Below, one piece after another: positions 16,843-17,193 of a stretch of 52,521 nt of DNA. A program made the position numbers and the translations under genes. Position 1 is the first letter of the stretch. Each line of letters opens with the position of its first letter. Origin of the DNA: Candidatus Woesearchaeota archaeon (GTDB taxonomy: Archaea > Nanobdellota > Nanobdellia > Pacearchaeales > GW2011-AR1); NCBI GenBank assembly GCA_964419275.1, contig CAYQOY010000004.1:3114-55634 (forward strand). The letters run 5' to 3'. The notes under the pieces are model-generated. The model was not told where the DNA came from and searched no databases. It worked only from the letters and a program-made list of their open reading frames with translations.

Positions 16843-17193
16843 TTACAAATCAATTACTCCCTCTTTTGTTAAAGCTGCGAATCTTATTCCAACAGGGAAA
16901 TTAATCAAAGCAGAAATCAAAGCCATATGCTGTTTTCCGTCCCCTGCAGCAATGCTTAATGCAACTTCTGTTCCGTCTATCTTTCCATCAAGCTTCGCGA
17001 GAATTTCATCTCTTAACTCTTTGATTCTTTTTGTAAAGTCTACTTGAATAAACTGAAATGGTTTTTCTGCACTAAATTGTTTTGCGGAAGCGTCACCAAT
17101 GATTAAAATATTATCCCAACTCTCATATTTTATTAAGCCGGCTACTTGCCCCCAGCTTTCCTTTTCCCCAGAGATTAATGCCACTAATTCCAT
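16843..17193 (-). CDS. Hypothetical alpha/beta protein, possibly CARF-like Rossmann fold
   Basis: Alternating strand/helix pattern. VALSIAAGDGKQHMAL resembles CARF motif II. Confidence 0.7.
   Translation of the reverse strand: MELVALISGEKESWGQVAGLIKYESWDNILIIGDASAKQFSAEKPFQFIQVDFTKRIKELRDEILAKLDGKIDGTEVALSIAAGDGKQHMALISALINFPVGIRFAALTKEGVIDL

Follow-up and report, generated by a model that had tools for sequence, protein, structure and literature searches.

With few exceptions, of which RtcR is the main one, the CARF domains characterised so far are components of immunity that depend on Cas10 and have a patchy distribution. In the CARF domains that bind cyclic oligoadenylate (cOA), the canonical motif II reads (D/N)-x-(S/T)-x3-(R/K) (PMC8844856), and the Crn1 ring nucleases display a motif I of the type GxS/T (GTS) after strand 1 (PMC10018336). 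The CARF domains of Can2/Card1 and Csa3 do not cleave cA4 (PMC10018336, PMC8844856), and that of RtcR reads an endogenous RNA product, namely 5' tRNA fragments with a cyclic phosphate (PMC7790460). The protein described here is predicted to share this fold, and cells whose genomes are among the most strongly reduced (0.5-1 Mb) keep it as a single-copy core gene.

The window, a stretch of 52,521 nucleotides, belongs to an assembly of 523 kb (82% complete), and the genes that it contains are archaeal in character. At 16843..17193 of its minus strand lies an ATG-initiated CDS, present as a single copy in the genome, which codes for a stand-alone protein of 116 residues with a predicted CARF fold; members of the family (163 sequences) are 115-132 residues long. 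This ORF is a genuine gene with its own promoter rather than a chance reading frame, because its protein has homologues in 2723 clusters at E <= 0.001, and because 79 close relatives of the gene have in common a BRE/TATA-like element at -41 to -22, to which the copy in the window is identical, base for base, at the conserved positions. The element consists of a purine-rich BRE-like sequence (17225..17234, minus strand; -41 to -32), conserved among close relatives, and a TATA-like box (17215..17222, minus strand; -29 to -22 from the ATG), the position of which is likewise conserved among them and suggests that the transcript would be leaderless or carry a short leader.

A structure model built from an alignment of 73 diverse family members (pLDDT 95) reproduces the order of strands and helices which the first-pass annotation had read as a small Rossmann-like fold: strand 2-6, helix 11-23, strand 28-33, short helix 35-39, strand 47-50, helix 57-68, strand 76-80, helix 86-97, and strands 102-109 and 112-115. 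The only slip in that reading is trivial, Ile81 having been omitted between the fourth strand and its loop. In a comparison with 48,161 PDB representative chains, the 14 best matches to the model are all CARF proteins (Z 9.0-12.7), headed by Can2 (Z 12.7, rmsd 2.3, 112 residues aligned, with a second Can2 at Z 12.6) and including VC1899 (Z 12.0), Csa3 (11.0), Csm6 (10.5), Cam1 (10.3) and Card1 (10.2). The best non-CARF match, MurG, reaches Z 8.9, and Crn1/Sso2081 scores 8.2. The CARF-like fold suspected in the annotation is thereby borne out, CARF proteins and not other folds ranking first, and on the strength of the model the protein is a predicted member of the CARF superfamily at the level of fold.

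The remaining comparisons are less telling. Foldseek gave Cam1 as its top match with nothing at E <= 0.001, a result that is not decisive alone, and single-sequence searches of Pfam and the PDB with the 116-residue protein found nothing. Among the 73 members, divergent ones match HFX_2341_N, Csa3_N and several PADLOC CARF profiles weakly; the PADLOC matches are scattered over at most 9 of the 73 (best E 7e-6) and do not include the window protein, and no model in Pfam, NCBIfam or PADLOC covers the family. The weak matches to the PADLOC profile PDC-M19B were set aside, as they span merely ~45 residues. Neither an adenylate-kinase-like protein (match E 0.3) nor a P-loop formed by the G-K motifs is upheld, the top 50 fold matches being free of P-loop kinases.

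The distribution of the gene was surveyed in 301 genomes drawn from the class, and the family is present in 133 of them, in 52/52 genomes of the same order and in 47/47 of the same family. Each carrier has one full copy, three second matches being short and partial. A deeper profile, run on 80 of the 168 negative genomes, revealed no ortholog, so that the gene ranges over its own order and the majority, though not the whole, of a set of related families. What this profile matched best there is an unrelated CARF in which motif II is canonical, in weak agreement with the CARF fold of the family; L189 (G105 contig C52, 1114-1308) holds a short stand-alone CARF of this description, an open frame of 135 residues, in a family without the ortholog. 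The atlas clusters of the present family are 99-100% archaeal and mostly from Nanobdellota. In loci spanning the family, pairwise identity is 47% for the CARF protein, as against 45% for rpL1, 40% for rpL10 and 54% for eIF5A, and its distances track those of rpL1, rpL10, eIF5A, FtsZ, TFB and S8e at rho 0.7-0.8, in a comparison of 6-17 loci per marker in which the correlations are partly driven by deep splits. These correlated distances fit vertical inheritance.

The protein stands alone, as had been proposed from the window: the chain ends at residue 116 after a hairpin, and no fused form was found among the homologues, which is a weak negative. One apparently longer homolog (P0272) matches 26% of the query; it comes from a contig of 3 kb with an M50 domain, and appears to be a frameshift or an assembly chimera. 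No CARF homologue was found in viral contigs searched by sequence and by fold, nor was a second CARF found in the genome that carries the window (82% complete).

Two regions of the protein correspond to the pocket-lining loops of solved CARFs. The motif I region (residues 7-14; 17152..17175, minus strand) occupies the loop from strand 1 to helix 1, and the motif II region (residues 80-91; 16921..16956, minus strand) spans the junction of strand 4 and helix 4 and falls on the two-fold axis of the predicted dimer. The family pattern of the latter is [NS]-x-x-S-G-x-G-K-E-H-M-A. Over the 163 sequences, conservation is highest at G86 (100%), G84 (99%) and H89 (98%), followed by A91 (92%), S83 (91%), R104 (89%), E88 and W14 (80% each), and K87 is found in about 81-82%, or in 87% when arginine is counted. 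The string G-x-G-x-x-H occurs in 161/163 sequences and a motif one residue longer than the canonical one, (D/N)-x2-(S/T)-x3-(R/K), in 98/163, whereas the canonical spacing (D/N)-x-(S/T)-x3-(R/K) occurs in none (0/163). Judged from these sequences, motif II has been remodelled across the whole family and not decayed, because a fixed variant is present in nearly all members and the canonical spacing in none. The description of motif II as degenerate is to be corrected in this sense, additional drift (S83A, E88Q) being confined to the window copy. Profile alignments to single CARF sequences are not significant and serve for motif register alone; in that sense, a Csa3-like protein of a type III locus places G86 at the position of the cOA-binding lysine when aligned gap-free, and K87 there when one residue is inserted. 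As for motif I, its consensus ends in G-K-G-[TS]-W, found in 99/163 sequences, with [TS]-W alone in 124/163; the ring-nuclease form GxS/T (GTS) occurs in 0/163. The window copy is a mild outlier, in which motif I is eroded with S13-W14 retained. Motif I is eroded also in several other Pacearchaeota copies, which suggests that ligand contacts are relaxed in these proteins.

In line with the first-pass annotation, which had noted no CRISPR, a search of the whole genome (82% complete) found no Cas10, Cas1 or CRISPR-like repeat array, and no mCpol, SMODS/CD-NTase or class III cyclase. Strong Cas10 matches occur in 5/301 class genomes, one of which carries the CARF gene (1/133 carriers). That sole Cas10-bearing carrier holds a complete type III-A-like locus (L186:3374-15496; Csa3-like CARF-HTH, Cas10, Cas6 and Cas1), and its core CARF gene is on a different contig. 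Weak "Cas10 palm" matches in Pacearchaeota coincide with GGDEF proteins and are not Cas10.

These figures weigh on the idea, raised in the annotation, of a ring nuclease or other protein for cyclic oligoadenylates. A Crn1-like cOA ring nuclease or sponge would draw its cOA from the host or a neighbouring cell, and would serve an episymbiont as a counter-defence or protective factor; the small, stand-alone CARF, its fold match to Sso2081 and the retention of K87 (or R) would suit it. Yet the catalytic GxS/T or GTS and the canonical motif II spacing are missing throughout the family, the closest folds are those of Can2/Card1 and Csa3, whose CARFs leave cA4 uncleaved, and a single carrier has Cas10. 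The sequence has no apparent signal peptide, and universal single-copy retention, slow evolution and the lack of viral copies are unlike counter-defence genes. A ring nuclease or sponge is thus regarded as very improbable, and the cOA reading of the annotation is not upheld by the motif, the Cas10 counts or the behaviour of a core gene. The nucleotide-signal sensor that the annotation named beside it is plausible.

When two copies of the protein were modelled together, the score of the prediction was 0.56, while no control exceeded 0.00; this mark was reached by 20/30 solved same-chain pairs and 1/23 single chains; the runs agreed in at least 96% of contacts, with pLDDT of at least 87. The predicted interface comprises residues 81-94 plus 13, 56-61 and 105-116, and G86-G86 and H89-H89 contacts fall on the two-fold axis. 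The protein is thus predicted to dimerise with itself, helix 4 and the loop of motif II forming the contact as they do in CARFs, so that the two-fold arrangement for which a dimer model had been recommended does appear, centred on motif II. The score may stem from likeness to CARF dimers already solved, because the predicted arrangement is the known one.

An adaptor without a ligand could also explain this interface: a CARF fold domesticated for a structural role in a complex of replication, transcription or translation, with its conserved glycines and histidine serving dimer packing and protein contacts. Such a role would account for the invariant G84, G86, H89 and A91 in or beside the predicted interface, where packing needs small residues, for the variability of motif I within Pacearchaeota, and for neighbours such as Cdc6, TFB, ribosomal and translation genes. 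It is nevertheless judged quite unlikely, as G-K-G-[TS]-W is kept in 99 of the 163 diverse sequences and K87 in 82%, and these motifs sit in loops that line the pocket in solved CARFs, with motif I mostly outside the dimer contact.

The gene sits in a housekeeping block, in agreement with the surroundings that the annotation had described. In close relatives it lies between the divergent rpL1-L10-L12 genes and a set made up of the site-2 protease, eIF5A, SlyD and FtsZ. The M50 site-2 protease, with its PDZ domain (15386..16822, plus strand), is convergent with the CARF gene, as had been stated, its stop being 20 nt away; it represents conserved synteny and shows no sign of a functional link. 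[quoted passage not shown] Further along the window, rpL11 (11378-12070) is ~6 kb from rpL1-L10-L12 (18132-19920) on the opposite strand, a split that recurs in relatives, and a tRNA-Thr (20239-20313) overlaps the 5' end of a mechanically called 655-residue helicase-like ORF (20278-22245), the true start of which is therefore probably downstream.

The winged-helix protein, identified as such from its fold, has 150 residues and a highly conserved N-terminal region; its family (e.g. L133:7626-8078) is unannotated, has no Pfam model and occurs as a single copy in 227/301 class genomes. Where a genome has both genes, the two lie within 5 kb of each other in 41 of 97 cases; 40 of these 41 pairs are divergent, and 27 stand directly head-to-head. 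The winged-helix gene was found neither in the genome that carries the window nor in 33/47 genomes of the same family, and one large clade of that family yielded none. Since it was not found here and occurs in many genomes without CARF, its product is not an obligate partner, and the head-to-head genes may merely share a promoter region. Cdc6/Orc1 lies downstream of the CARF gene and co-oriented with it in 18/58 diverse loci, within 50 nt in six, and a metallophosphoesterase and TatD come after Cdc6 in many loci. Such adjacency is a lead only, because related genomes do not count as independent cases and these blocks have a conserved gene order.

The loss of the winged-helix gene would pose no difficulty for an enzyme that needs no partner. 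The protein may be a small housekeeping phosphodiesterase or phosphotransferase, in which E88 and H89 at the two-fold axis would act as acid/base or hold a metal; in the service of nucleotide salvage, it would break down short RNAs, cyclic phosphates or cyclic dinucleotides of endogenous origin. The conservation of H89 (98%) and E88 (80%) and the H89-H89 contact across the predicted axis point in this direction, as do the [TS]-W of motif I, since Ser/Thr and Trp aid catalysis in some CARF nucleases (PMC8844856), and the metallophosphoesterase and TatD genes behind Cdc6. No known CARF catalytic motif is however present (GxS/T in 0/163), the window copy carries E88Q and S83A and is otherwise intact, and H89 could be conserved for dimer packing alone. 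An enzyme is therefore considered rather unlikely.

Candidate sources of a signal were examined in the same genomes. The genome of the window encodes a DisA-type diadenylate cyclase, one GGDEF protein and RtcB. Among the 133 carriers, DAC is found in 70 and GGDEF in 57, and 39 have neither of these nor Cas10; the DAC-bearing genomes are nested within the carriers (70/73), a pattern that is confounded by lineage. Neither DAC, GGDEF nor RtcA matches the CARF distribution across the 301 genomes. The RNA 3'-phosphate cyclase RtcA occurs in 0/47 same-family genomes, and an Rtc-type circuit is thus unsupported. As no tested synthase explains the universal retention, the protein would have a ligand without a dedicated synthase (e.g. 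an RNA turnover product), or no ligand. The survey also showed that DAC domains are present in 43/52 other genomes of the order, where two in one genome are common, and that a DisA-type diadenylate cyclase (L171:1396-2472, G000 contig C2) adjoins a DHH-like gene. GGDEF domains occur in 74/301 class genomes, an example being a stand-alone archaeal GGDEF protein with a GGEEF site (L187:1393-1977, G000 contig C3); c-di-GMP has rarely been described in archaea.

In the reading preferred here, to which an even chance is given, the product of this vertically inherited, single-copy core gene of Pacearchaeota and many Woesearchaeota-type archaea has a housekeeping rather than a CRISPR role: as a homodimer it would sense a nucleotide or an RNA end of endogenous origin and act in trans. 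An everyday cellular nucleotide is probably sensed, because the gene is a single-copy core gene and Cas10 is almost absent from its carriers. Two copies would pack via helix 4 and the motif II loop, bringing G84, G86, K87 and H89 of both chains to a predicted two-fold pocket flanked by the motif I loops, where the glycine-rich loops and K87 may bind the phosphates of a small endogenous ligand made by every such cell. The likeliest ligand would be a short RNA-breakdown product or an RNA end with a 2',3'-cyclic phosphate (cf. the RtcR CARF), and a cyclic dinucleotide is the alternative. As the protein lacks an effector domain, it would have to pass on the binding of its ligand in trans, to a protein of information processing. 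Foremost among the candidates for an ancestral partner is the winged-helix protein whose gene stands head-to-head, the two corresponding to a Csa3-like pair split into two genes, and the second candidate is Cdc6/Orc1. In the clade to which the window belongs, another partner or a buffering role would be needed because the winged-helix gene is missing there. Against a sensor, a histidine that hardly varies and has a Glu beside it would be expected in a catalytic or metal site sooner than in a plain sensor, and no tested cyclase matches the CARF distribution across the 301 genomes.

A wider proposal is that Pacearchaeota and Woesearchaeota possess a core, non-immune nucleotide signalling system, in which a free CARF dimer responds to an undescribed endogenous messenger and controls the separately encoded winged-helix regulator or Cdc6. 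This is advanced tentatively and is held to be improbable; if true, core CARF signalling might couple, for example, host attachment or RNA damage to replication. Taken together, core retention, a conserved promoter, a rebuilt motif and the scarcity of Cas10 suggest that the CARF fold has a housekeeping ligand or activity not yet described. With 116 residues and apparent solubility, the protein makes the question of CARF ligands outside immunity directly testable. A large family without annotation, of more than 2700 clusters, also gains a predicted fold in this way, and could serve as a lineage marker.

A literature search for CARF together with Pacearchaeota, Woesearchaeota or DPANN found no paper; the family may already figure as a minor CARF clade in the classification of Makarova et al. 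2020. Among solved structures, Can2/Card1 (PDB 8q3y, 8bao, 7bdv, 6wxw) and VC1899 (1xmx) are the best matches (Z 10.2-12.7 over 108-112 residues). Can2/Card1 have in common with the present protein the six-stranded core and the helix-4 dimer, which is predicted here. Unlike them, it is without a nuclease domain, shows 10-17% identity, behaves as a core rather than a patchy gene outside cas loci, and possesses a motif II longer by one residue with an E-H pair. Csa3 (PDB 6wxq) is similar in fold, and Csa3 and the HFX_2341/DUF6293-type CARF-wHTH proteins (PF22662, PF19810) give weak profile matches in 7 and 4 of the 73 members. Relatives of the present gene often have a head-to-head winged-helix gene; in the Csa3 type the winged helix is C-terminal in the same chain, whereas in the relatives it is a separate divergent gene. 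Csa3 differs further in its motif spacing, which is not kept here, and in its CRISPR link, which the present family lacks. Crn1 (Sso2081, PDB 7ygh) is likewise a stand-alone CARF dimer, as predicted here, its motif II lysine is conserved, and the present family fits the size of Crn1-type stand-alone CARFs, under 250 residues. Unlike Crn1, the family lacks the GTS catalytic motif and any tie to type III loci, and the protein, with 116 residues as against 178, is too short to accommodate the helical insert by which Crn1 is gated (PMC10018336). RtcR, too, is a CARF protein outside CRISPR, and the present protein shows an atlas TM of 0.70-0.72 to RtcR-like clusters, yet it carries no AAA+ or HTH domain and is not encoded beside rtcBA, rtcB being on another contig; a profile comparison of E. 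coli RtcR with the family revealed no sequence similarity (probability 0.9%). The family thus belongs to the CARF superfamily by fold, and does not qualify as Crn1, Csa3, RtcR or a canonical cOA-binding CARF.
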